A stretch of DNA of 64,000 nt, taken from contig CP166615.1 of the NCBI GenBank assembly GCA_041937175.2, positions 2,048,001 to 2,112,000 on the forward strand. The letters run 5' to 3'. The DNA is from Limnothrix sp. BL-A-16 (GTDB lineage Bacteria; Cyanobacteriota; Cyanobacteriia; CACIAM-69d). Each line of letters begins with the position of its first letter. The stretch's first letter is position 1. Under the pieces are notes generated by a model. That model did not search any database. It was not told the origin of the DNA and saw only the letters and a program-made list of their open reading frames with translations. The translations under genes and the position numbers were made by a program. Below, piece by piece: positions 35,968 to 47,120 of the stretch.

Positions 35968-37278
35968 ATGGTTCAGACCCCAATCAAACCGGACACCGCC
36001 CCCAAAATTCCCCCGTCGCAGCATGAATTTGCGGAAGTGATTCATCGGCTGGAAGCGGGCGGCGCAATGTTGCCCGACACGCCAGAAAACCTGATGCAAA
36101 TCATCGGCATTTACAAGGCCTATGCCGTGCCGATGGACTTCTATTGGCGCGACTTGCTCTACATTGCCGAAGAAGTTTTCCTCAATCCCTTTCCCTTCTT
36201 CAAATATTTCCTACCCCAGAAATATTTAGACCTGCCGAACCACTACGCAGGCGACACGGCCGACTTGCGAATTTGGCGCGGCATCGCCACGGCACACCCA
36301 GAATTGCTCGACTTCATGAGCAAGGGTGAAACGATCAAAATGCCGAAGCTGTTCCATCACCTGTGGCACGATCGGGTGAATATGGAATTCGCCGAAGCCT
36401 GTATGCAGGCCATGCTCTGGCATCGCAAAATGTATGCGGGCGTGAATCGGTTTGATGATTTCCTAAACACCGAGGAATATCGCCAAAACTGCGATCGCGC
36501 CATCAAAGCCTACTTCAAAGGCAATCCGATCATGTTGGGGATGTATAAACTCTTCCCCGAAGCCTTCATTGAGCAATGCCGAATGATGTCCTATTACAGC
36601 AACTTGGGGCTGTTTTGGGAAATCATGGCTCCGGTGTTCTTTGAGATGTCAGACATCTATGATGAAGGCGGCTTCAAGGGTGTGCCCGATGCCATGAACT
36701 TCCTGATTAATGGCATCTTTGCGATTTCCGGTCGCCCGATCTATCACCGCGTGAATATTCGTGGTGAATGGTTCGATTTGGTGCCCAAAGATAAGGGTTT
36801 TATGTGGCTCTATGATGCGGCATTACCCTACGTGGAGGCGGTGTTTTATCGCACGGCTCCGTTCCGGGGAACCAAGTCCTACAACGCCCAAGCGGGGCAA
36901 GTCCCCAGCGAGCAAGCGGACTTCCATTACGGCATTCTGTACGCCGACGTATTCCCCGTGGGAACTGCCGGGATTCCGCCCACACAATTGATGCAGGATA
37001 TGTTGCATTTCCTGCCGCAATATCTGTTGGATTACTATCACCAACATTGCCGGGGCGAGGACGATATGTTGATCCAGCTCGGGATTACCTTCCAGCGATC
37101 GATGTATTGCGTCACCTCCGCCGTAATCCAAGCGCTGCGGGCGGCGTTGCTCTATCCGTTGGATGACGAAAACCCGGAGCACCTGATGGCCAACCGCAAA
37201 TTCTTTGAGGCGCAAATGGATCGCTTCAAGCGTCCTGAGGCTCGCCTGCGCGACATCCAAAATCGCGATTACCGCTAA
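35968..37278 (+). CDS. cupA: CO2 hydration protein CupA (ChpY)
   Basis: HEFAEVIHRLEAGGAMLPDTPENLMQIIG; 436 aa fits CupA rather than the shorter CupB. Confidence 0.95.
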   Translation: MVQTPIKPDTAPKIPPSQHEFAEVIHRLEAGGAMLPDTPENLMQIIGIYKAYAVPMDFYWRDLLYIAEEVFLNPFPFFKYFLPQKYLDLPNHYAGDTADLRIWRGIATAHPELLDFMSKGETIKMPKLFHHLWHDRVNMEFAEACMQAMLWHRKMYAGVNRFDDFLNTEEYRQNCDRAIKAYFKGNPIMLGMYKLFPEAFIEQCRMMSYYSNLGLFWEIMAPVFFEMSDIYDEGGFKGVPDAMNFLINGIFAISGRPIYHRVNIRGEWFDLVPKDKGFMWLYDAALPYVEAVFYRTAPFRGTKSYNAQAGQVPSEQADFHYGILYADVFPVGTAGIPPTQLMQDMLHFLPQYLLDYYHQHCRGEDDMLIQLGITFQRSMYCVTSAVIQALRAALLYPLDDENPEHLMANRKFFEAQMDRFKRPEARLRDIQNRDYR

Positions 37279-37322
37279 GTTTCCTTCCTAAGAGTTGCTT
37301 GCTCTGATCGAGCAGCCAGGCG

Positions 37323-37356
37323 ATCGGGTTAGTGTGTCCCACTAGCCCGATTTTTT
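37323..37356 (+). terminator. Intrinsic terminator after cupA
   Basis: ATCGGGTTAGTG-TGTCC-CACTAGCCCGAT stem followed by a T run. Confidence 0.75.
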
Positions 37357-37365
37357 ATCTTCTGT

Positions 37366-37743
37366 TTAAATGTGGGTCTCAGCCAATGATCGCTCTGCTG
37401 TTTCACTACCTTGGCGGTTTAGGGCTTGCCAATTGGCAGCGATCGGCTCGAATGCACAATAGCAAGTAATCACTTCGCGCCCGCTATTGCTTATAAATTG
37501 TTCCACTTCAATCACGACCCAATCGCCGTCCCGCCCATGGGTTACGCCATTACCCGGATCGGTCAAATTGCTGTAGTCCCTTAGCCGATCGCCCGGCTTC
37601 GGTAATCGATTAGCACCGTAGTCCAGCTCCTGCGCCAACAAATTCGTTAAACTGCCCCGAGGCATCAATCACCGTTCTTCCCAGCCAGGTTCGTCGGCCG
37701 CAGCCACATACAAAATCCGCCGATTTGGAATTAGTTCAGTCAT
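37366..37743 (-). pseudogene. Small hypothetical gene interrupted by an in-frame TGA at codon 25 (37669-37671)
   Basis: AGGAGG Shine-Dalgarno before ATG 37743; MTELIPNRRILYVAAADEPGWEER*LMPRGSL... continues in the same frame for 100 codons. Confidence 0.65.
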
Positions 37744-37927
37744 CGCCTTTTTCCTCCTGCCAAGTTTCATCCATAAAACTGGTTTGCGGCCCTTCAAAGA
37801 CGCAATCTACACCCAAGGCCATGCCTCCAGCAGCCTTCACAATATCTTTGAGTTTTCATCTATTTCGCTGGGCCATTTTTCGACAATCGGCAGGAGTAGC
37901 AGCCCCATGAACATTTTCGGTTTCTGA
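37736..37927 (-). pseudogene. Decayed small hypothetical gene with an internal TGA (37856-37858), overlapping the next start
   Basis: ETENVHGAATPADCRKMAQRNR*KLKDIV...VDCVFEGPQT; its stop overlaps ATG 37743; no intact upstream start codon. Confidence 0.45.
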
Positions 37928-38004
37928 TCAGTACAAATTTTACTGTATCAGTCATTAATATTAACCTTGGAATACACTGGGAATTGTCTTTAAGTCAGTG
38001 GTTT

Positions 38005-38460
38005 ATGCTGAGATCATTCATCCTTCGTCAATCGGCGATCGCTCTAGCGGGATTAGCCTTGGTTGCAACTCCCACGTCAGCGCAGACAGTTAATTGGGAA
38101 CAATTGCGGCGAGTTTGTCCCCAAAATCCCCAAGCTTATGTGGGTTCAACGGCTCAAGCGGCATCTATGAAAGAAGCGGTTCGACGCTATCTTGGCGCAA
38201 CTGCTGATAGTTTGGAGCACATGTCTGACCCAACAATTTATCGGGGTTGGGGTGAGCTATCTTTTTTGTCTGGTGAGATGTCTAGCGCTCGTCAATTTTT
38301 GATTAACCCTAACGGTCGTGTCACTGAGTTGTCATTTTCACTGGACTTTGCTTCCGGTCAACATGACAATTACCGTTCATTGGAGCGAATGCGTAATTTA
38401 GGCGTTTCGCCCGAGGTAACAGCTTGTTTGCATGAAGGAGCAAGACTTTTTCATTTTTAG
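38005..38460 (+). CDS. Hypothetical secreted protein, AT-rich relative to core genes
   Basis: Signal peptide ending TSA-Q; two Cys; 151 aa. Confidence 0.6.
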   Translation: MLRSFILRQSAIALAGLALVATPTSAQTVNWEQLRRVCPQNPQAYVGSTAQAASMKEAVRRYLGATADSLEHMSDPTIYRGWGELSFLSGEMSSARQFLINPNGRVTELSFSLDFASGQHDNYRSLERMRNLGVSPEVTACLHEGARLFHF

Positions 38461-38484
38461 TGCTGTGGTTGGAGATGAATTGCG

Positions 38485-38592
38485 ATGACTAGGCCAAGCA
38501 TTCTGCGTCCGGGTCAGTCCTATCATTTCCAGCAATATTTTGAGATGGCCGATGAGCCAGACGATATTTTGGCGGAGTTTGGTTATACGTTA
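38485..38592 (+). pseudogene. 5' fragment (~36 codons) of a conserved cyanobacterial hypothetical gene
   Basis: MTRPSILRPGQSYHFQQYFEMADEPDDILAEFGYTL resembles a recurrent cyanobacterial N-terminus (recalled, not searched); the frame then runs into the hepT antisense strand. Confidence 0.5.
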
Positions 38593-38619
38593 TTTCTTTG
38601 GTTTGGGTTCAAAATCAAC

Positions 38620-38994
38620 TCAATCTTGATAGGTTTTGATCATCGACTGAATTGCATTGAGTAATGCAGGAAGCTGTTTTTGGCAGACTGTGAAAATTTC
38701 CTCAGCATCAATATCAAAATAGCGATGCGCTAAAACATCACGAATGCCTTTTGCACCGCGCCAGTTAACTTGCGAGTAAGGAGCAAAAATTTCACCATTG
38801 GTCTCTCGATCGAGCCATTTTAGATTTTCACCGATCGCAATCAGCATCATACTAATCGCATCAAGCAGATCTTGACCATGCTCAGTATCCAAAAAGTCAT
38901 CAGGTGTTGAAATTTGAACAAATCGGCGATTAATGCGTTGTAAAGCATCATCAACCTGTAAAAGTTTTTCGTAAATCAGCGATCGGTCAGACAT
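38620..38994 (-). CDS. hepT: HepT-like HEPN ribonuclease toxin (DUF86)
   Basis: IGE motif and RX4HXY motif RDVLAHRY; 124 aa; directly downstream of an MNT gene. Confidence 0.9.
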   Translation of the reverse strand: MSDRSLIYEKLLQVDDALQRINRRFVQISTPDDFLDTEHGQDLLDAISMMLIAIGENLKWLDRETNGEIFAPYSQVNWRGAKGIRDVLAHRYFDIDAEEIFTVCQKQLPALLNAIQSMIKTYQD

Positions 38995-39053
38995 AGAGAA
39001 TTAGATATAAATTGCATCGCGATCGATCCGGCGTTTCAGGTAGGGATTCATGC
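38958..39053. repeat. 96-bp imperfect direct repeat, copy 1 (mntA end / hepT start)
   Basis: 89/96 identical to 44358-44453 by manual alignment. Confidence 0.92.
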
Positions 39054-39366
39054 GCGGGCGATAACGAATTAGGTCGATCGAGCATTGAAAAATTTGCTCT
39101 AAATCCGCTTTGATATCCACCATTGTGAATAGATCCGGCACGGTCAATTCCAAGACGATATCGATATCGCTATCAGGCTTGGCCTCGTTGCGGGCCACTG
39201 AACCAAAAATACCAAGCCGGGTTACACCATATTTTTGGTGAAGATCGGGAGCGAGTTGCCGCAGCGTGGCGAGGATGCGATCGCGATCGGGTGGCTCGCT
39301 CGTAGGGGGCAAGGGGCTGGAGCACCTTGTCTGGGGTTGGTTGGGAGGTGGCTCGTGATGGGTCAT
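39001..39366 (-). CDS. mntA: MntA-like minimal nucleotidyltransferase antitoxin
   Basis: GSX10DXD motif FGSVARNEAKPDSDIDI; ATG overlaps the upstream stop (ATGA). Confidence 0.9.
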   Translation of the reverse strand: MTHHEPPPNQPQTRCSSPLPPTSEPPDRDRILATLRQLAPDLHQKYGVTRLGIFGSVARNEAKPDSDIDIVLELTVPDLFTMVDIKADLEQIFQCSIDLIRYRPRMNPYLKRRIDRDAIYI

Positions 39367-42300
39367 CGCTCGTTGAGGGGTGGGAGGTTGTTGACGATCG
39401 CGACGGTTTCCAAACTGACGCGGACGATGCGTTTTAGGAGATCGATGATGTAGTGGGGGTCGTCGCTCCAGTGGTTGGGATTGTTGGTGATGCCGCTGTC
39501 TTTGTCTTTGGTGATTTGGTAGCGTTCCATGATCCATTCGATCGCGGATCGATCGCACACTTTGTACTCATAGGCGGCGAGGGGAATGCCGATCAGTTTG
39601 ATTTTGTGGTTATAGATAATCGTGGTTTTATCGATTTGTTTGTTGTGGCGGCCGAAGGTCATTTTGGTGACTTGATAATCGTCGGCTTCGACAAAGAGGG
39701 TTTCTTTGAGTTCGTCGATCGGGTAAGGTTCGATCGCCTCATAATTCAGATGCCAATGGGCGAGTTGGCGACCGGCGCGGCTGAAGGCCCAAAAGTCGGC
39801 GGCGAAGGGAATCCGGGGCAACATTTTCTTCAGGTCGGCGGCGAACCGGGTTTTATATTCGGGGCTGTGGAGGATGCCGTAGACGTAATAGAAAATGTCT
39901 TCTTTGGTGATTTTGGGGTCGCGATAGGTGGTTTGGAAGTCGTGCAAAATCGCGTCGGGAATGTTGTCGTTGCGGCGATAGTCGCTTTGGTTGGAATCGG
40001 CGGTTTGGAAGAGTTCGCCGAGGTCGGTGTTTTTGGTATAGGTGTAGAGGGGAAAATACTGAGTTTTTGAGAGAATATCATCAGCGACAGTATTAACAAT
40101 CAAAGCTGAGTAATCTCTTTGTGCTCCTGCTCCCGTTACGCAAATTGCCACGTTTTCCAGAGGGGCGATCGGGAAAATCTTCGGCATTTGGTAAACCATG
40201 TCATTCCAATGCTTATTGAAATAAACCCATTGTTTACAATACGGTCGATAGATTCCTGAAACCACTGAATCAGATTCAAGGCGATAGGTTCTAAGCTTGC
40301 TTAGATCACTTTTCAGTCCACGCGACCAGTTGATTTTACTGGAATCAGTCACAATGAAATGATCAATGGTCGGTTTTTCGCCTTGGATCGCTTGATACTG
40401 CTCAACCTGTTGATTGTAAAAATCAATCATGCGGCTCATATTATTGGCAACCGCATCACGCGAGAAGTTATAGCACCAAGCATCTCGACTGGTTGCAACT
40501 CCTCGTGAATACACATCAAAGATGGTTTTTGCTGTGGCATCTTTTTTGTCACCCATGGAAAGGAACGCATCAAACACTGGATTGCGTTGATTAATCCAAT
40601 CGTGGCTGTCGTTGGGTGTGATGGTTTGCCAATTAATCCCAGAAATGTCGCCAAAATCTTGAATGATTTTCAGCTTTTCTTCGCGGCTGAGATAATCGCC
40701 AATATCGTGATAGAAAACCTGACAAGCTCCCGAATGCTCGGGATTTTTAATCAACAAACTAATTGCGACATTTGTTCTTGTTCCTTCACCAAAAACACTC
40801 CCCTTTTCCATGCGACGCTGCTCGCCTGATGTTCTCGCGTTGCCTCGCAAATTAAAGACATAAACCTTACTAAATTCATCCGTTAAACATTTTCGCAATC
40901 CATCCATTGCGTTGTTGTCGATAAACGAACCATTCGAGACAAAGCAAACAATTCCCTGATCTTGAAGGCGATCACTCGCCCAACGAATCGCCCGAATATA
41001 GGAATCATAAAGACTATTTTTATTCGTCGCGCTGGAATATTTTGCATAAGTCTCGGTAATCCGACCATCCAATGCGTCATATTTCAGATTCTTGTTATTC
41101 TCATTCTCACTGCCCTGACCCGCTGAATAGGGCGGATTGCCAATAATCACCCGAATATCGCGCCCTTTCTGCGCCTTCACCCGTTGATTATTTTCAGGAA
41201 ACATCAAATCTTCCAACGTTCCCGCCGTCTCAAACATTTGGAACGTATCCGTCAAAACAATCCCATTAAACGGTTGATAGGCTCCACCGCTCAACCCGTG
41301 AAACGTTTCCTCAATGTTGATCGCCGCAATGTAATAGGCCAACAACACAATTTCATTGGCGTGTAACTCACCCGTAAACTTCCGCGCCAAATCCTCCCGC
41401 CGAATCAAACCACTTTGCAACAACCGCACCATAAACGTGCCCGTGCCCGTAAACGGATCGAGCACATGCACCCCCTGATCCGTCAACCCCACCCCAAATT
41501 CCTGCTTCAGGGCCTGGTCGGCACTGTGAATAATGAAATCCACCACCTCAACCGGCGTGTAGACAATTCCCAGGCGATCGGACATACGCGGAAACGCATT
41601 CCGAAAAAACTTGTCGTATAACTCCAAAACAACCGTTTGCTTGCCCGCCGCATTGTCGATTTTGCTCGCCCGCTGCCGCACACTGTCGTAAAACTTTGCC
41701 AGTTTTGCCGTGTCCTTTTGCAACGATTCGCGCTCCAGCAAATCCAGCATTTTTTGCATCGCGATCGACACCGGATTTTGTTCCGTAAACGCATAGCCCT
41801 CAAACAACGCATCAAACACCGGCTTCGTGATCAAATGTTGCGCCAACATCTCGATCGCATCCAGTTCCGACACATTGGGATTCAGGTTTTCGCGCAGACC
41901 CGCCAAAAATTCCTCAAAGGCCCGGCGATGGTCCCGATCGGCCCGTTCAATTAACCCCTTGATCCGCGAAATATGCCGATCGGCAATTTGCGCCACATCC
42001 GCCGCCCACTGTTCCCAATAGCGGCGATCGCCACACTTCTGGACAATCTTGGCGTAGATCGCATTTCGCCACTCCTCCAAATCCGGGAAATTCAGCGATA
42101 GTTGCGTCGTTTTGCCGCCACCTCCGGCCGGGCGATCGCCAATCACCTCCAACTCGCCCGATTCCCCCATCCCCACCCCAATCACACCAATTTGCGCCGG
42201 TTTCGATTGGTTCAGCTCCAACTTATTCACCGTCGCATTGAAGCGATCGTCGTGAGCCCGCAACGCCTGCAACACCTCCCACACCACCGCATAGCGCTTG

Positions 42301-44183
42301 TTGTCCTTCAGCGCTTCCTCGGGCGTGATCCCCGCCGGAATCCCGATCGGCAAAATGATGTAGCCATACTTTTTGCCGGTCGCCAGCCGCATCACCCGCC
42401 CCACCGACTGCACCACATCCACCACCGACCCGCGCGGCGACAAAAACATCACCGCATCCAACGCGGGCACATCCACCCCCTCCGACAAACAGCGCACATT
42501 CGACAAAATGCGGCAAACATTCCCCTCGCCGCTGGTGTCCGCCTTCAGCCAATCCAACTTGGCGTGGCGCTCCAGCATGTTTTGCTTGCTGTCCACATGG
42601 TCGAGCTGGCAATCCAACAGCGCTTCATCGTCCGGGTGCGTGCGCTTGTATTCGCTCACCATGGCCGAAAACATCCGCACGATCGCCTCAGATTTCACGA
42701 TCGACGGCGCAAAAGCCACCGCCCGCCGCATTGGCTCGCGATCGGCGCTAGTGTACCCATCGGTCTCCGCTTCTTCCCCGTCTCCTGCGATCCGCTTGGC
42801 CAAACCGTTCCAACAACCCGCGATCTTGACCGCATCCTCTAGCTTCAGTTCATTGTTCTCGTCAGCCAACTGGTGCTGAAAGGCTTGGCTCACGGCCTTT
42901 TCGTCCACCGCCAACACCATCACGCGGTAGTCTGCCAACAACCCCTGGGCCACCGCGTCCCCAAACCCCAGCCGATAGAACTCCGAGCCGTAGAGCGCCT
43001 CATCATCCATCGAACAGAGCACAATATTGTTCTCTTTCGCCGTCGTTTTGGCATTGTCGCCATACAAACGCGGTGTAGCGGTCATATACAACCGTTTGCG
43101 CGCCTGGATGAACTGGTTGTCGTGAATCCGCACAAAATAGGATTCTTCCTTGCCCGCGATCGTCGCCCCCGTCGTCCGGTGAGCCTCGTCGCACAAAATC
43201 AAATCAAACTCGCCCAAGCCCTCCCGCAACTGCTGGGCCTCGGCGATCGCCTGCAACGATTGATAGGTCGAAAACACCACCAATAGATCGCACTGGCCCG
43301 ACGCGGCGATCGCCTGGGCCTGCTGGGCAATCACCGCCGGATCGGTCGTCGCCGGTAGGGCCAAATCCTGGGCGCTCATGTCCTCGCTGTCGGTTTTGCC
43401 CTTGCTGGCCTTCGCATCGGAACAGACCGCAATGCTTTGGAGCTTCACCGCCGTTTCCGCCGACCACTCCCGCAACGTTTGCGACAACAGGGCGATCGAC
43501 GGCACCAAAAACAACACCCGCGCCGGTTGGCCCTGGCCCCGACTGCCCACAAATCCTTCAGCGATTTTCAGGCCCGTGAAGGTCTTGCCCGTGCCGCAAG
43601 CCATGATCAATTTGCCCCGATCGGCACTGCCAAACCCGGCCATCACCTGGGCGATCGCCTCCTCTTGGTGGGGGCGCGGCGTTTTCTTGGGTTTCAGGGT
43701 CAGGGCGATCGCCTTGCCCCGACTGCTGAACTGGCCCCAATCGATCGCGCTTTCTTCCAAATCCCGCAGGCTCAACCGCGTTACGGGGATTTGCTGATTT
43801 TTCAGGGCCGCTTCGGCGTGCTTCGTCCACTTGTCCGTGGTGGAAGCAATGATCCGGCTGCTAAATTCCTTCGTGCCCGACGCGGTGAAAAACGAGTCAA
43901 TATCGCTCTTGTCGAGATAGTGATTGAAGTCGTAGAACTTGCACTGAATCGCGCAATAGTCCCCCGTGGCCCGCTCCTGAGCTACTAAATCGATCCCCGT
44001 GTCCGGTCTGCCATTGCGCCGGGGCCAATCCATCCACATCCACACATTCGAGAACCGTTCGTAATAAAGCGGCTCCTTGCGCAGGTAGCTCAACATCAAC
44101 AATTCAAAGCGATCGCCCAGGTCTCGGGTGGAACTGGCGGCGGCTTGGAATTCTTGAAGGATGCTGCGAAGGGTGGTAGCCAT
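39363..44183 (-). CDS. Type ISP single-polypeptide restriction-modification enzyme (LlaGI/LlaBIII-like)
   Basis: Mrr-type nuclease E..D..QCK; SF2 motifs MACGTGKT, DEAH and QSVGRVMR; N6-MTase motifs LDPFTGTG and NPPY; C-terminal TRD; 1606 aa. Confidence 0.93.
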   Translation of the reverse strand: MATTLRSILQEFQAAASSTRDLGDRFELLMLSYLRKEPLYYERFSNVWMWMDWPRRNGRPDTGIDLVAQERATGDYCAIQCKFYDFNHYLDKSDIDSFFTASGTKEFSSRIIASTTDKWTKHAEAALKNQQIPVTRLSLRDLEESAIDWGQFSSRGKAIALTLKPKKTPRPHQEEAIAQVMAGFGSADRGKLIMACGTGKTFTGLKIAEGFVGSRGQGQPARVLFLVPSIALLSQTLREWSAETAVKLQSIAVCSDAKASKGKTDSEDMSAQDLALPATTDPAVIAQQAQAIAASGQCDLLVVFSTYQSLQAIAEAQQLREGLGEFDLILCDEAHRTTGATIAGKEESYFVRIHDNQFIQARKRLYMTATPRLYGDNAKTTAKENNIVLCSMDDEALYGSEFYRLGFGDAVAQGLLADYRVMVLAVDEKAVSQAFQHQLADENNELKLEDAVKIAGCWNGLAKRIAGDGEEAETDGYTSADREPMRRAVAFAPSIVKSEAIVRMFSAMVSEYKRTHPDDEALLDCQLDHVDSKQNMLERHAKLDWLKADTSGEGNVCRILSNVRCLSEGVDVPALDAVMFLSPRGSVVDVVQSVGRVMRLATGKKYGYIILPIGIPAGITPEEALKDNKRYAVVWEVLQALRAHDDRFNATVNKLELNQSKPAQIGVIGVGMGESGELEVIGDRPAGGGGKTTQLSLNFPDLEEWRNAIYAKIVQKCGDRRYWEQWAADVAQIADRHISRIKGLIERADRDHRRAFEEFLAGLRENLNPNVSELDAIEMLAQHLITKPVFDALFEGYAFTEQNPVSIAMQKMLDLLERESLQKDTAKLAKFYDSVRQRASKIDNAAGKQTVVLELYDKFFRNAFPRMSDRLGIVYTPVEVVDFIIHSADQALKQEFGVGLTDQGVHVLDPFTGTGTFMVRLLQSGLIRREDLARKFTGELHANEIVLLAYYIAAINIEETFHGLSGGAYQPFNGIVLTDTFQMFETAGTLEDLMFPENNQRVKAQKGRDIRVIIGNPPYSAGQGSENENNKNLKYDALDGRITETYAKYSSATNKNSLYDSYIRAIRWASDRLQDQGIVCFVSNGSFIDNNAMDGLRKCLTDEFSKVYVFNLRGNARTSGEQRRMEKGSVFGEGTRTNVAISLLIKNPEHSGACQVFYHDIGDYLSREEKLKIIQDFGDISGINWQTITPNDSHDWINQRNPVFDAFLSMGDKKDATAKTIFDVYSRGVATSRDAWCYNFSRDAVANNMSRMIDFYNQQVEQYQAIQGEKPTIDHFIVTDSSKINWSRGLKSDLSKLRTYRLESDSVVSGIYRPYCKQWVYFNKHWNDMVYQMPKIFPIAPLENVAICVTGAGAQRDYSALIVNTVADDILSKTQYFPLYTYTKNTDLGELFQTADSNQSDYRRNDNIPDAILHDFQTTYRDPKITKEDIFYYVYGILHSPEYKTRFAADLKKMLPRIPFAADFWAFSRAGRQLAHWHLNYEAIEPYPIDELKETLFVEADDYQVTKMTFGRHNKQIDKTTIIYNHKIKLIGIPLAAYEYKVCDRSAIEWIMERYQITKDKDSGITNNPNHWSDDPHYIIDLLKRIVRVSLETVAIVNNLPPLNER

Positions 44184-44357
44184 GGGCGGGCGCTCGATCG
44201 GTCAATCAATACGTCAATATAATGCGTCGATACAAGGCATCGATAGGCGCATCAACTTATACAAAGGTTACTCGATATGATCGAAGAATTCAGGTGAGGA
44301 AATCTTTCATTTTTGTAAAATTCGTCTATCCAAGCAGTCACCATTCTTGATTAATTC

Positions 44358-44453
44358 GTAAGAGTTTTTCGTAAATCAGCGATCGATTAGACATAGAAAA
44401 TCAGATATAAATTGCGTCGCGATCGATCCGGCGTTTTAGGTAGGGATTCATGC
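44358..44453. repeat. 96-bp imperfect direct repeat, copy 2 (remnant of an mntA-hepT junction)
   Basis: On the minus strand encodes MNPYLKRRIDRDAIYI* then MSNRSLIYEKLL; exactly 5400 bp from copy 1. Confidence 0.92.
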
Positions 44454-44468
44454 AAGGATATTGATATT

Positions 44469-46001
44469 CTATTCATTCAATAATTGCTGTTGGCGATGCC
44501 AGGCAACAGAGAGGGCGCGGATTGCGGCCATTTCTTCGGCGGGGATTTTTTCCAGATGCTTCAAAATTAGGCTCATGCGCCCCTGCGATCGCAATTTGCT
44601 CTCGTGCCGCGCCAGGAAATCCCAATAGAAAAAGTTAAATGGACAAGCTTTTGGCCCCGTGCGATCGCGCGGACTATAACGACAACCTTTGCAATAATCA
44701 CTCATCCGATTGATGTAGTTCGCTGAGGCGGCATAGGGCTTGGAAGCCAACAAGCCCCCATCGGCAAATAGCCCCATACCCATCACATTGGTTTGCATCA
44801 CCCAATCGTAGGCATCAATAAAAACCGCGTGGAACCAGTTCTCCACTTCCTGGGGATTCAGACCCGCAATCAGGGCAAAGTTCGACAACACCATGAGCCG
44901 CTGAATGTGGTGAGCATAGCCGGTGCGATCGACCTGTTGCAGCACCTGGCGCAGGCAGTTCATATCAGTGTTGCCGTCCCAAAACCACTGGGGCAGAGCG
45001 TGTTGGTGGCCAAACCAGTTGCGATCGGGGTAGGGCGGTTCCTCGTCAGCTTTCAGCACTTGCAGGTAGATGCCGCGCATGTATTCTCGCCAGCCCAGCA
45101 CTTGCCGAATGAAGCCTTCAACGCTGGCGATCGGCAGACCCCGATCGCGCCAGGCCTTTTCGGCGGCAAAGATCACCTCACGCGGATGCAGCAAGCCGAG
45201 GTTGAGGTAGGGCGAGAGCAGGGCGTGCCACAGGGTGTCTTGGCCCGTCACCATCGCATCTTGGTAGGGGCCAAAGGTGCGGAGCCGGTGGGCGATGAAG
45301 TGGTCGAGCACGTCGAGGGCACGCGATCGGGTGGTGGCCCAGCGGAAGGAGTCGATCGATCCGTAGGTGGGCAAATCGAGCGATCGCACCTTTTCGATCA
45401 CCGTCAGCACAATTTCATCGGGCGCAAATTCCAGCGGTGTGGGCGGATGTAGCGGCCCCTTGGGGGGTTGGCGGTTGTCCTTGTCAAAGTTCCACTGGCC
45501 GCCGACGGGCTTGGAACCTTCCATCAAAATTTGGAATCGTTTGCGCCCTTCCCGATAGAAATCTTCCATGAGGAAGCGTTTTCGGCTGCCAAACCAGTTG
45601 GCTAGCTCTGTCTCGCTCCAGAGAAATTGGTTATTGGGGATTTGTTCCAGTTTGCAGGGCAAATCGAGCTGATTCAGGGTTTGCTGAAAGGGCCGATCAA
45701 CCGGAGCCATCACCAACAGCCGATCAATTTGGTGCTTGATCACCCAGGCGCGTAGGGGTGTGGCGAAATCTTCTGCCTCGGCCCAGGTGGCGGGCCAGCC
45801 CATATCCTGCAACTCCCGCACAAAGTGGCGCATGGCCGACCAAACCAGCACCAATTTTTGGGCATGGTAGGGCCGTTGGCGCACATGAGCCAGGGACTCG
45901 ATCGCGATTACCGGAACCCGCGCCCGATCGCCCGCACAGGCCACCAACGCCGCTTGCTCGTGCCACAGTTGATCGCCCAAAATCCACACCCCCGTTTTCA
46001 T
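44469..46001 (-). CDS. FeS-containing bacterial cryptochrome/(6-4) photolyase (PhrB/CryB class)
   Basis: WILGDQL, GGQWNFDKDNR and YAHHIQRLMV; four FeS Cys (MNCL, YCKGC, ACPF). Confidence 0.9.
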   Translation of the reverse strand: MKTGVWILGDQLWHEQAALVACAGDRARVPVIAIESLAHVRQRPYHAQKLVLVWSAMRHFVRELQDMGWPATWAEAEDFATPLRAWVIKHQIDRLLVMAPVDRPFQQTLNQLDLPCKLEQIPNNQFLWSETELANWFGSRKRFLMEDFYREGRKRFQILMEGSKPVGGQWNFDKDNRQPPKGPLHPPTPLEFAPDEIVLTVIEKVRSLDLPTYGSIDSFRWATTRSRALDVLDHFIAHRLRTFGPYQDAMVTGQDTLWHALLSPYLNLGLLHPREVIFAAEKAWRDRGLPIASVEGFIRQVLGWREYMRGIYLQVLKADEEPPYPDRNWFGHQHALPQWFWDGNTDMNCLRQVLQQVDRTGYAHHIQRLMVLSNFALIAGLNPQEVENWFHAVFIDAYDWVMQTNVMGMGLFADGGLLASKPYAASANYINRMSDYCKGCRYSPRDRTGPKACPFNFFYWDFLARHESKLRSQGRMSLILKHLEKIPAEEMAAIRALSVAWHRQQQLLNE

Positions 46002-46119
46002 GGGGATGCTCAATTGCTGGAGTTCCGCACCCATTAAGCCCTACCGATTTCTGACGGATTCTCGACCGATTTCTATTGCTTGACTGATTTCTACTGCTTG
46101 TGCGCCTAAGCATGTACGC

Positions 46120-46461
46120 CTAAGCATCGGTGGGCCGATCGCCCCGGCTCCCCTGCACCCAAAGCTGCACCATCAGCGCCAACAACCCCAGGGCCACAAA
46201 GCTAAAGACAAAGGTTCCCAGGGTGCCCACCCCGACCACCAAGGTGCGCACCGCACCGCCAATGCTGAGGGTGAGACGGTTGGTGCTGGTGATGGGGTGA
46301 GCGGCAAAAGTTTGGGCAATTTTATAGGTCAGTGCGCCGGCTCCCACCGCGATCGCCGCCGAAATTCCGGAACCCCCCAGGCAATCCAGGGGTGAGGGCA
46401 TTTTCTTGGCGGGAGTTTCGGGGGTGGTTTTGCTGGTTTTGGGGTTGGGTTTGGAGGTCAT
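46120..46461 (-). CDS. DUF3082-like small membrane protein
   Basis: PLDCL.G...IAQTFA..P...AVRTLVVG pattern; two TM helices. Confidence 0.7.
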   Translation of the reverse strand: MTSKPNPKTSKTTPETPAKKMPSPLDCLGGSGISAAIAVGAGALTYKIAQTFAAHPITSTNRLTLSIGGAVRTLVVGVGTLGTFVFSFVALGLLALMVQLWVQGSRGDRPTDA

Positions 46462-47120
46462 GGCAAGGCGGCGCTAAACGCTGACTCCCCTTAATTTACA
46501 GCCGATCGGGTCGTTCCCACCGCGCAAAGGCAGATCCCGGGGCGATCGGGGCAGTTTCCCCTTCAGCCGCATCAGTGCAGAGTGAATTGGGGTGAATTCA
46601 AGGCGATCGGGGGCGATTTGGAGCCAGTCGGCAACCCATTCTCTCCCTGATGACTGGGTTACTTCCCCTGGCTCGTTACAAGCCAGTTGTAGAACTTCAT
46701 GAAGAAATTCATAAACTTCATAAACTTCTTCATGGGATTAAAAAGAGATCAAACATTTATTTTGGTATTTTCGGGATCATGCTCCCGCATCATCAACCAC
46801 CTTGAGCATTTGATCCCTATTTTTACTTAGTGATTCCCTAAAGGTGTTCTTAAGAATTGCTGGAATAAAGTCAGTGCAAAATTCTTTTCTCTGATGAAGC
46901 AGTTTTGACGATGATTGTTTTTCTTCAAAGCAAGGGAAAAGCTTATCTCCAAAGGCGATGAGCGTTCTTTGGAAAGCCCGTGAAATTGCAACAAATTCCT
47001 TTAGGCAAGTTGTTATAAATGTCATCACTCGATCGCGCGATCGATAAGACAAGTTGAAAATTCCGATCGCAACCGGGGGATCGGCCTAGGATGCAAGCAG
47101 TTGCGCGGAAGCGAACGCGT

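Follow-up and report, generated by a model that had tools for sequence, protein, structure and literature searches.

In a 64,000-nucleotide stretch of the genome of Limnothrix sp. BL-A-16 (hereafter the window; the genome itself is G000 in comparisons), a pair of 96-nt direct repeats brackets a Type ISP restriction-modification (RM) gene together with the antitoxin gene of a predicted toxin-antitoxin (TA) pair. On balance, we lean towards regarding the two copies as the passive scar of an RM insertion that was accompanied by a long target duplication, the upstream copy of which was trimmed later. The repeat is unique in the genome, an intact RM gene and mntA lie between its two copies, and no mobility gene is present in the 29 ORFs scanned, all of which supports an insertion scar.

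Anatomy of the repeat pair and of the bracketed genes

The features of the locus, with positions in the window, are as follows.

38485..38592, plus strand: PD-(D/E)XK gene remnant of 36 N-terminal codons; the same-genus genome G002 has the whole gene (204 aa)
38620..38994, minus strand: hepT, 124 aa, predicted HEPN RNase toxin of a type VII TA pair (Pfam HepT-like, E 2e-17)
38958..39053, minus strand: repeat copy A, the working mntA-hepT junction
39001..39366, minus strand: mntA, predicted nucleotidyltransferase antitoxin (Pfam NTP_transf_2, E 1e-11)
39300..39345, no strand assigned: copy of a short dispersed repeat (50 genome matches including this copy)
39346..44210, minus strand: RM unit in common with the same-genus genome G001, which has it at another locus
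39363..44183, minus strand: Type ISP RM enzyme, a single polypeptide of 1606 aa (Pfam, LlaBIII/LlaGI match, PADLOC)
44208..44357, minus strand: AT-rich orphan spacer between copy B and the RM unit
44358..44453, minus strand: repeat copy B, a stub without gene body on either side
44454..44468, minus strand: junction of 15 nt between the stop codon of the photolyase-related gene and copy B
44469..46034, minus strand: photolyase-related (DPRP) core gene, the left flank

The repeats at 38958-39053 and 44358-44453, described in an earlier note on this DNA, were recovered by a repeat search as two 96-nt copies that are 89/96 identical (93%) and lie 5400 nt apart from start to start, with 5304 nt (<20 kb) of DNA separating them. 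The seven differences fall at repeat positions 5, 29, 31, 41, 45, 59 and 80 and delimit identical blocks of 4, 23, 1, 9, 3, 13, 20 and 16 nt, and beyond either end the 93% identity gives way to background within a few bases. Being 96 nt long, the repeat exceeds 30 bp, and it is not dispersed: the 4,555,668-base genome holds only these two full-length matches (E 1.8e-44 and 7.8e-35), the next best match being of 24 nt.

Translation of the minus strand agrees with the assignment of the repeats to the mntA 3' end and the hepT 5' start. Both copies encode MNPYLKRRIDRDAIYI followed by a stop codon, which is the 3' end of mntA, and then, after a 6-nt spacer, the 5' end of hepT, read as MSDRSLIYEKLL in copy A and as MSNRSLIYEKLL in copy B. 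Copy A thus consists of the last 16 codons and stop of the intact mntA, the spacer, and codons 1 to 12 of the intact hepT. Copy B, which begins 15 nt past the stop of the photolyase-related gene, carries the same 16 mntA codons and stop and then 12 hepT codons, with the substitution D3N.

Polarization of the differences with two relatives, G002 and the metagenome lineage L119, assigned four derived changes to copy A (two synonymous, one stop-to-stop and one in the spacer), all of which are harmless, and three to copy B (one synonymous and two in hepT codon 3). This pattern would fit a constrained copy (A) versus a free copy (B). A TAC that is common to copies A and B, where L119 and G002 have TAT, seems to fit no route cleanly without gene conversion or parallel change. 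The 7% divergence between A and B is equal to or higher than the 4-6% found for the flanks of G000 and G002, so that either the event is old or the copies come from two lineages.

HepT-MntA pairs are recognized by the motif Rx4-6H in the toxin and by GSx10DxD in the minimal nucleotidyltransferase. Here, the hepT protein contains RDVLAHRY and the mntA protein contains GSVARNEAKPDSDID, as in such pairs, and from domains and motifs mntA-hepT is predicted to be a HepT-MntA type VII TA pair. Comparison of hepT by sequence with solved structures gave no match, and neither did its comparison with PADLOC. There are about ten hepT-like matches in this genome, and the nearest hepT relatives elsewhere are 61-62% identical. 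The PD-(D/E)XK remnant, which is cut off by hepT plus 28 nt, marks the right edge of the variable region.

The homology with the same-genus mntA begins at 39294 (codons PPDRDR), the N-terminus upstream of this point is new, and a candidate ATG at 39366 overlaps the RM stop codon (ATGA); the true start of mntA is therefore uncertain. The dispersed repeat copy is located precisely at the boundary where the shared RM unit ends and the mntA homology begins, and it contains an in-frame TTG that is a second candidate start for mntA. Because mntA lies directly behind the RM stop, with the ATGA overlap, the mntA-hepT pair is probably transcribed together with the RM gene. A promoter scan of 44184-44470 found no consensus promoter.

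The RM polypeptide comprises a Mrr-like nuclease, a helicase-like ATPase, a coupler, an N6-methyltransferase and a target recognition domain (Pfam Mrr_cat_2, ResIII, ISP_coupler, N6_Mtase/Eco57I and Type_ISP_C). Both the restriction and the modification functions predicted from this one 1606-aa chain thus lie inside the bracketed stretch, in which the RM gene and mntA are the only complete genes. A Pfam scan of the 29 window ORFs between 21 and 62 kb detected no integrase, transposase or prophage domain, in keeping with the remark in the earlier note that neither an integrase nor a transposase is nearby.

When the bracketed segment was deleted in silico, hepT kept all of its 124 codons and followed immediately on the 16-codon mntA stub, while mntA was gone; the predicted loss of the RM gene and mntA with retention of the toxin gene is therefore borne out by the product.

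The spacer behind copy B

The earlier note had described a weak hepT-like similarity running towards about 44250, on which it had based the idea of a decayed second TA copy. This similarity proved to be at chance, and nothing significant was found in the spacer 44208-44357 against hepT or against anything else searched. The Smith-Waterman score of the spacer against hepT was 25, compared with 21.8 +/- 3.6 for shuffled sequences, of which 203/1000 reached it; tblastx of the spacer against the genome and all loci retrieved no hepT; and a HepT profile built from 76 sequences gave E values of 0.017-0.27 in a search of 3 sequences. With profile, shuffled Smith-Waterman comparison and tblastx all at chance, a hepT-like remnant past copy B was rejected as a feature.

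It appears very improbable that copy B is what remains of a separate mntA-hepT paralogue pair that once stood upstream of the RM gene and decayed there. In favour of this origin, copy B is a piece of a second TA junction, paralogues are common (the hepT-like matches mentioned above), and a collinear, very weak and non-significant resemblance to HepT can be read in a shifted frame (ISSPEFFDHIE versus ISTPDDFLDTE). However, similarity past hepT codon 12 is at chance in the shuffles and the profile search, the abrupt loss of identity at both repeat ends looks like breakpoints and not like decay, and in L119 a hepT of the copy A type lies behind the same stub. A full second mntA-hepT pair at the locus, which the earlier note had named as the sign of simple paralogue decay, was seen in no relative.

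Allele types of the locus in relatives

The locus was surveyed within the genus, using species representatives and one metagenome scan, and three allele types were found: the one described here, the G002 type and the L119/L120 type. The RM-bearing architecture was also present, at about 97-99% identity, in contigs of four public runs (X1, X2, X3 and X11). A single 15.4-kb contig of X11 spans the whole architecture, contigs of X3 and X2 span both junctions, and a contig of X1 spans the hepT-mntA-RM side. No joint across the repeats was found in the contigs of these four runs, a search that is uninformative on rare circles or deletions because contigs drop rare variants. A 195-nt contig of X3 (depth 2.4), which matches 38906-39053 with 16 differences and ends at the repeat edge, could be an L119-like allele.

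In G002, the photolyase gene (94% identical) is followed by 65 nt, a whole 108-aa mntA, 12 nt, and the intact convergent 204-aa gene; there is no RM gene, hepT, stub or repeat at this locus. The G002 mntA is 91% identical to window positions 39003-39294.

The metagenome lineage L119/L120 has a single repeat, joined to the left flank of copy B and the right flank of copy A, and carries neither the RM gene nor the mntA body. From the photolyase stop it runs through the same 15-nt junction into the mntA stub and a single repeat, with 90/96 matches to copy B and 89/96 to copy A. The hepT of this lineage follows the copy A sequence to nt 89 (133/148 overall) and is cut after about 30 codons by a 324-nt deletion, which starts after hepT nt 89 and runs into the remnant of the 204-aa gene. 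An empty site of the kind looked for on the basis of the earlier note was thus found, with one repeat, without RM or mntA, and with a truncated hepT. L119 and L120 are 100% identical over 3436 nt, so the single-repeat allele represents one lineage only. It is not a naive empty site, since its trimmed junction is shared with the locus described here, and it could be a deletion product, an insertion recipient or a trimmed-junction donor.

It is worth mentioning that in this one natural single-repeat lineage (n=1) hepT is also destroyed, an observation no more than compatible with the idea that loss would be penalised unless the toxin is inactivated.

A pristine site with photolyase gene, whole mntA and whole hepT was absent from every genome and contig examined. 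In the stretches examined from G001, G003, G004 and G005 (other genera, apart from G001), no mntA, hepT or RM gene was found beside the photolyase gene. Among 80 loci with hepT relatives (hepT 46-62% identical), none had a second copy of its own TA junction within about 8 kb, and only two trivial junction matches, of 26 and 16 nt, were obtained. The same junction repeated around other cargo, which had also been proposed as something to look for, was accordingly rejected at 0/80 loci. A plasmid search returned one unrelated 248-nt helicase match, and viral contigs gave no match to the junction pattern.

The RM unit at other loci

The RM unit of G001 shares with the window the ends 39346 and about 44210, with a weaker gapped similarity extending to about 44265. 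The RM genes are 95% identical over the first two thirds and 81% identical in the recognition-domain part (about 40056-41079), which varies between strains. The G001 locus has neither a TA gene nor a flanking repeat, and its RM flanks of 690 nt and 700 nt share no match longer than 9 nt. As these flanks map about 240 kb apart in G000, no empty site can be defined for the G001 unit. The RM homologue of G014 is broken up into several ORFs, with repeats on one side only; that of G039 has no flanking repeats. The presence of the unit at another locus in G001 shows that it moves independently of the locus analysed here.

These data bear on entry by homology at a TA locus, which the earlier note had put forward and which the findings in G001 and at the 80 loci speak against. 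In this scheme, a 5.4-kb circle or loop consisting of the repeat, the RM gene and most of mntA would have entered by a single crossover into a stub-hepT or mntA-hepT junction and would leave in the same way, its exit being penalised by the leftover hepT. Such a crossover at the repeat would yield two repeats around the insert and would join the incoming mntA body seamlessly to the resident mntA 3' end, both as seen; no recombinase gene is present, and L119/L120 provides a single-repeat allele with the right flanks, in which hepT is dead. We nevertheless consider it unlikely, given that the G001 unit resides elsewhere without repeat or TA gene and between flanks that share nothing above 9 nt, that 0/80 hepT-relative loci have a second copy of their own junction, that no perfect block in the repeat exceeds 23 nt, and that a viable recipient carrying hepT without antitoxin would be required. 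No circle was observed in the contigs of the four runs, from which rare variants are dropped. The more far-reaching proposal, that the RM gene and the antitoxin form a recombinase-free cassette which uses the mntA/hepT junction, belonging to a widespread type of TA pair, as a portable landing site for host homologous recombination in both directions, that its exit strands HepT, and that the dead-hepT single-repeat allele is a survived escape, seems quite improbable to us. A cassette of this kind would stay put because exit by the same route strands HepT without antitoxin.

Left flank and recombination breakpoint

The 15-nt junction 44454-44468 is identical in L119/L120, whereas G002 matches its first 9 nt only; it may be a trace of the deleted upstream mntA body. 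In the photolyase-related gene, the last ~190 nt (from about 44660) group with L119 and the rest with G002. From alignment column 1373 on, 17 sites support G000 with L119 versus 2 that support G000 with G002; before this column the numbers are 30 versus 197. The gene therefore holds a recombination breakpoint, and the site patterns show allele exchange between lineages in the left flank.

An illegitimate join would be another way to arrive at this arrangement. An incoming fragment composed of spacer, RM gene, mntA, hepT and flank, derived from a donor strain in which an intact TA pair follows the RM unit, would have recombined by homology on its right side, while its left end was joined at hepT nt 37 of an L119-like stub allele; the resident stub would then have been kept by accident, because the left end was joined illegitimately. 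This would account for the sharp right edge of copy B with the orphan spacer behind it, as well as for the letter-for-letter L119 junction and for the resemblance to L119 of the final ~190 nt of the photolyase gene. But photolyase homology was available on the left, so that plain allelic replacement would be expected, copies A and B lie about equally far from L119 (7 and 6 differences, respectively), and the donor allele was not observed. We rate this explanation as distinctly unlikely.

Comparison with known systems

Nobusato et al. are said to have described, in 2000, RM gene units inserted with long target duplication. The criteria set out by Furuta et al. 2010 (PMC2853133) are that R and M lie in the insert, that the insert is <20 kb and the repeat >30 bp, and, further, that an empty site with one copy exists. 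Mruk and Kobayashi 2013 (PMC3874152) speak of target duplications "in the order of 100 bp". In the published cases, which include Cyanobacteria (Microcystis), the repeats range from 45 to about 420 nt. As in those cases, an RM gene without mobility gene lies here between repeats that far exceed transposon target duplications, the repeat is unique in the genome, a relative has one copy and no RM gene, and the RM unit is also present elsewhere in the genome of a sister strain. The one-copy, RM-less relative for which both flanks align is L119/L120, which is one lineage with a trimmed junction and an extra 324-nt deletion; unlike a naive empty site, its single-copy allele combines the trimmed junction with a truncated toxin gene. 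In contrast to the published cases, what was duplicated here is a TA-pair junction, and most of the resident antitoxin gene lies in the interval between the repeats, which makes it probable that the duplication was originally longer and was cut back later. In the best reading, the locus is a further case of the RM insertion scar already described, situated here inside a TA locus.

An island driven by an integrase and bounded by att repeats was also considered and rejected, as no tyrosine or serine recombinase occurs in the 29 ORFs scanned.

The RM polypeptide matches the Type ISP enzymes LlaBIII (4xqk) and LlaGI (5ffj) over its full length (1338 bits, residues 18-1602), with five Pfam domains in the same order in one chain; unlike in LlaBIII/LlaGI, the recognition-domain part differs between strains.

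Some TA modules, such as those of superintegrons and genomic islands, protect the chromosomal DNA next to them from being deleted. Similarly, in the in-silico product, losing the bracketed segment removes the antitoxin gene and keeps the toxin gene. Unlike in those modules, the two TA genes here lie on opposite sides of the deletion endpoint, and only deletion through these particular repeats would therefore be penalised.

HepT-MntA (HEPN/MNT) modules are type VII TA pairs (Yao et al. 2020, PMC7641770). In such a pair, HepT halts growth and MntA counteracts it through AMPylation. The pair in the window resembles known ones in its order, mntA followed by hepT, in its 6-nt spacer and in its HepT-like and NTP_transf_2 matches, and differs from them in that the N-terminus of mntA has been exchanged and the gene follows immediately on the RM stop.

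Proposed origin and significance

Under the favoured interpretation as an insertion scar, a recombinase-less Type ISP RM unit would have inserted into an mntA-hepT locus behind the photolyase-related core gene. The insertion would have duplicated its target, probably a stretch of about 340 nt that began at mntA codon 13 and ended at hepT codon 12. A duplication of 96 nt alone would be insufficient, because the insert contains mntA nt 37-279, orthologous to the resident gene of G002. The downstream copy would have remained the working pair, with mntA fused behind the RM stop and followed by hepT, while the upstream copy would have lost its mntA body by a later deletion, leaving the 96-nt stub (copy B). 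Rare homologous recombination between the repeats would remove the RM gene and mntA and leave hepT alone, since the toxin gene, unlike the other two, is not bracketed by the repeats. From the present arrangement we infer how long the original duplication was, in which order the events took place, and the selective "lock"; loss through the repeats, by orphaning the toxin, may act as such a lock on the RM gene.

There is still no good account of how recombinase-less defence genes spread between genomes, and the main lead comes from the long target duplications that surround RM units. The present locus adds a case of the RM scar with three natural allele types, in which a variable region has been swapped between lineages, recombination ending inside the neighbouring core gene. 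Its geometry is unusual, in that the repeat-mediated deletion that removes the RM gene would take the antitoxin as well and spare the toxin. If this geometry has been selected, a TA pair can protect an adjacent defence gene from the deletion that its own scar invites; if it has not, the locus is a well-documented example of a known scar.

The repeat pair and the genes around it

The direct repeats of 96 bp described in the earlier note, 5400 bp apart, were recovered by a repeat search as a single two-copy family, copy A at 38958-39053 and copy B at 44358-44453 (93% identical). The two copies show 7 differences, their longest identical block is 23 nt, and the identity stops sharply at both ends. 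Full-length matches to the 96-nt repeat occur at two places only in the 4.56-Mb genome (E 1.8e-44 and 7.8e-35), the best further match being 24 nt. Every gene relevant to the repeat locus lies on the minus strand; the list here also gives the right-hand remnant of a convergent gene.

Features of the repeat locus
46034..44469, minus strand: photolyase-related DPRP gene, then 15 nt before copy B
44358-44453, minus strand: copy B, then a 150-nt AT-rich spacer and 24 nt up to the RM start codon
44183..39363, minus strand: restriction-modification (RM) gene, 1606 aa
about 39366..39001, minus strand: antitoxin gene mntA, last 16 codons inside copy A, then a 6-nt spacer
38994..38620, minus strand: toxin gene hepT, first 12 codons inside copy A
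38485-38592, plus strand: 204-aa PD-(D/E)XK gene, 36 codons (intact at L021:3315-3929 in the same-genus genome G002)

Copy B likewise encodes these 16 mntA residues and their stop codon, followed by MSNRSLIYEKLL, with a stop six codons on. The Pfam domains of the RM protein are an Mrr-like nuclease, ResIII/helicase, ISP coupler, N6-methyltransferase and Type ISP C-terminal domain, and LlaBIII (4xqk) and LlaGI (5ffj) match it over its full length, which identifies it as a Type ISP enzyme. The start ATG of the mntA ORF overlaps the RM stop codon (ATGA). In Pfam, HepT matches HepT-like (E 2e-17) and MntA matches NTP_transf_2 (E 1e-11); they contain RDVLAHRY and GSVARNEAKPDSDID, respectively, which correspond to the toxin and antitoxin motifs. 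A further hepT-like gene, 39-42% identical and split in two by a TAA stop, is located outside the window (G000:C1:2141063-2141430), and the genome holds other MNT proteins besides mntA. The 204-aa protein was assigned to PADLOC PD_DExK (E 3e-28), with no Pfam match. As had been noted earlier, no integrase or transposase is found nearby: none of the 29 ORFs in a Pfam scan from 21 to 62 kb of the window carries such a domain. The neighbours are core genes, among them those for ndh-type antiporter subunits, ChpXY, transhydrogenase and citrate synthase, and ChpXY, the GCGATCGC site density and the nearest hepT relatives mark a cyanobacterial host.

Mobility and variation of the RM unit

The RM gene of the same-genus genome G001 is 95% identical to that of the window in the first two thirds and 81% in the recognition-domain part, and it sits between genes that map elsewhere in the window genome, with no TA gene adjoining. 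The unit common to both genomes spans 39346 to about 44210, beyond which gapped similarity continues to about 44265, and a comparison of its flanks in G001 revealed no repeat longer than 9 nt linking them. Judged from this comparison, the RM unit moves by itself. In the more distant genome G014, the RM homologue (L025:3238-8564) is split among four or more ORFs, probably as a pseudogene; on one side it is flanked by 300-, 206- and 69-nt repeats at a spacing of ~760 nt.

One copy of a dispersed repeat 30-45 nt long is located at 39300-39345, exactly between the end of the RM unit and the point where mntA homology begins. The genome has 50 matches to this repeat (including this copy), and genomes of the same genus and family carry it too. 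The mntA ORF as annotated runs straight through the copy.

Contigs of four public sequencing runs (X1, X2, X3 and X11) were placed on window 36500-46500. A single 15.4-kb contig of X11 covers hepT, mntA, the RM gene, copy B and the photolyase gene; X3 provides two contigs, one for the hepT-mntA-RM 3' side and the other for the RM-copy B-photolyase side; both junctions are covered by contigs in X2, and the hepT-mntA-RM 3' side by a contig in X1. hepT and mntA are gap-free in the X1 and X2 contigs, and contig depth at the dispersed repeat is raised 4-8 fold in all four runs. The contigs are ~97-99% identical to the window, and replacement or strong divergence within the RM gene is confined to its recognition-domain part (about 40056-41079), in strains X3 and X11. 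Together with the lower identity of this part in G001, the pattern looks like swapping of the RM specificity domain. The GC content of this part is 0.42-0.46, vs 0.56-0.62 in the N-terminal half of the gene. Two extra bases (GA) are present in all four runs at window 44188, just upstream of the RM start codon. In the right flank, 590 nt (37356-37947) are replaced by the same 39 nt in X2 and X3, an indel polymorphism unrelated to the repeats.

Alleles of the locus in relatives

G002, whose photolyase gene is 94.0% and 158-aa right-flank gene 96.0% identical to those of the window, has the order photolyase gene, 65 nt, a whole 108-aa mntA, 12 nt, and the intact convergent 204-aa gene; its locus contains no RM gene, hepT or 16-codon mntA stub. 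In the window, the 204-aa gene is broken off after codon 36 (~38592) by hepT and 28 nt, and the arrival of hepT removed about 516 nt at this site. The G002 mntA is 91% identical to window 39003-39294. An mntA without adjoining hepT is found both in G002 (L021:2977-3303) and in G003, a genome of another genus (L121:2757-3110). The mntA genes of the window genome, G002 and G003 all become homologous from the codons PPDRDR onwards (GATCGCGATCGC, which is a HIP1-type site), upstream of which the N-termini are unrelated. This comparison points to a mobile mntA module whose 5' breakpoint is fixed, because the start is common, the loci differ, and the G002 and G003 MntA proteins are 94% identical vs 63% for the photolyase proteins of the two genera.

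Metagenome contigs were scanned once for a 27-nt pattern spanning the junction. This gave the kind of empty site sought in relatives, although not a naive one: a single-repeat allele without RM gene or mntA and with a truncated hepT (L119 and L120). The two contigs are 100% identical over 3436 nt and therefore represent one lineage only, which is more distant (photolyase gene 84.0% and 158-aa gene 78.7% identical to the window). On the left, the photolyase stop codon is followed by the 15 nt also seen in the window, then by the stub and one repeat, after which hepT extends in copy-A-type sequence as far as nt 89 (133/148 identical overall). Next comes a 324-nt deletion corresponding to window 38905..38582, edged by an imperfect 11-nt microhomology, and beyond it are a further decayed 204-aa gene 5' remnant (stop at codon 17) and the 151-aa right-flank gene. 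The left flank is thus that of copy B and the right flank that of copy A.

With L119 and G002 as outgroups, four derived changes were assigned to copy A (GAT and CTT, both synonymous; TAA, stop to stop; and one spacer base) and three to copy B (CTA, synonymous, and two in hepT codon 3, D to N). Silent changes make up 4 of the 6 coding differences (P about 0.05 vs a 27% expectation). Such changes would be expected if copy A were under coding constraint and copy B free. One change, TAC, is common to both copies against L119 and G002, and its sharing fits no route without gene conversion or parallel change.

Up to column 1372 of the photolyase alignment, 197 sites place the window genome with its sister G002 vs 30 with L119; from column 1373 (~190 nt before the stop, near window 44660), 17 sites place it with L119 vs 2 with G002; 5 of these 17 fall past the stop codon, where the G002 sequence differs. 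The left edge of the variable allele therefore lies inside the photolyase-related core gene. The switch shows that the allele has been exchanged by crossovers inside that gene (~44660), and that the segment with the trimmed 15-nt junction passed between lineages otherwise 16-21% diverged. Nearly as good a fit as the duplication account below is a recombination event joining copy B and the 3' end of the photolyase gene, by which that junction would have been imported from an L119-like allele.

Origin and consequences of the repeats

Duplication, trimming and recombination offer the simplest account of the locus. Insertion would have duplicated a stretch of about 340 nt that began at mntA codon 13 and ended at hepT codon 12; the mntA body of the upstream copy would later have been deleted, giving the 96-nt stub; and recombination between the two copies, with a hepT-inactivating deletion, would have produced the single-repeat allele. 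None of the genomes and contigs examined had the pre-insertion target predicted by this account (photolyase with both mntA and hepT whole). Nearly as good a fit is given by a circular RM-mntA piece integrated at the junction by a single crossover, and by an incoming RM-mntA-hepT fragment with an illegitimate left join into an already decayed L119-like allele.

Nothing suggests an active role of the repeats. With copies this short (longest perfect block 23 nt) and 7% divergence between them, host recombination should be rare. The in-silico product of such recombination agrees with the predicted loss of the RM gene and mntA and retention of an intact hepT, which then follows the photolyase-related gene in the same orientation, after the 15 nt and the 16-codon stub. 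In the only natural single-repeat lineage (n=1) hepT is destroyed; this single case may fit counter-selection of an orphan toxin.

Insertion of RM units with long target duplication is a published footprint (Furuta 2010, PMC2853133; Mruk and Kobayashi 2013, PMC3874152). In contrast to that footprint, the bracketed stretch of the window also holds mntA nt 37-279, orthologous to the resident G002 gene. Among the papers listed by literature searches, none concerned an RM unit that lies between two copies of a TA junction. The insertion footprint itself is thus already known in print, and the TA junction geometry around the RM unit is an interesting twist and the part open to experimental test.
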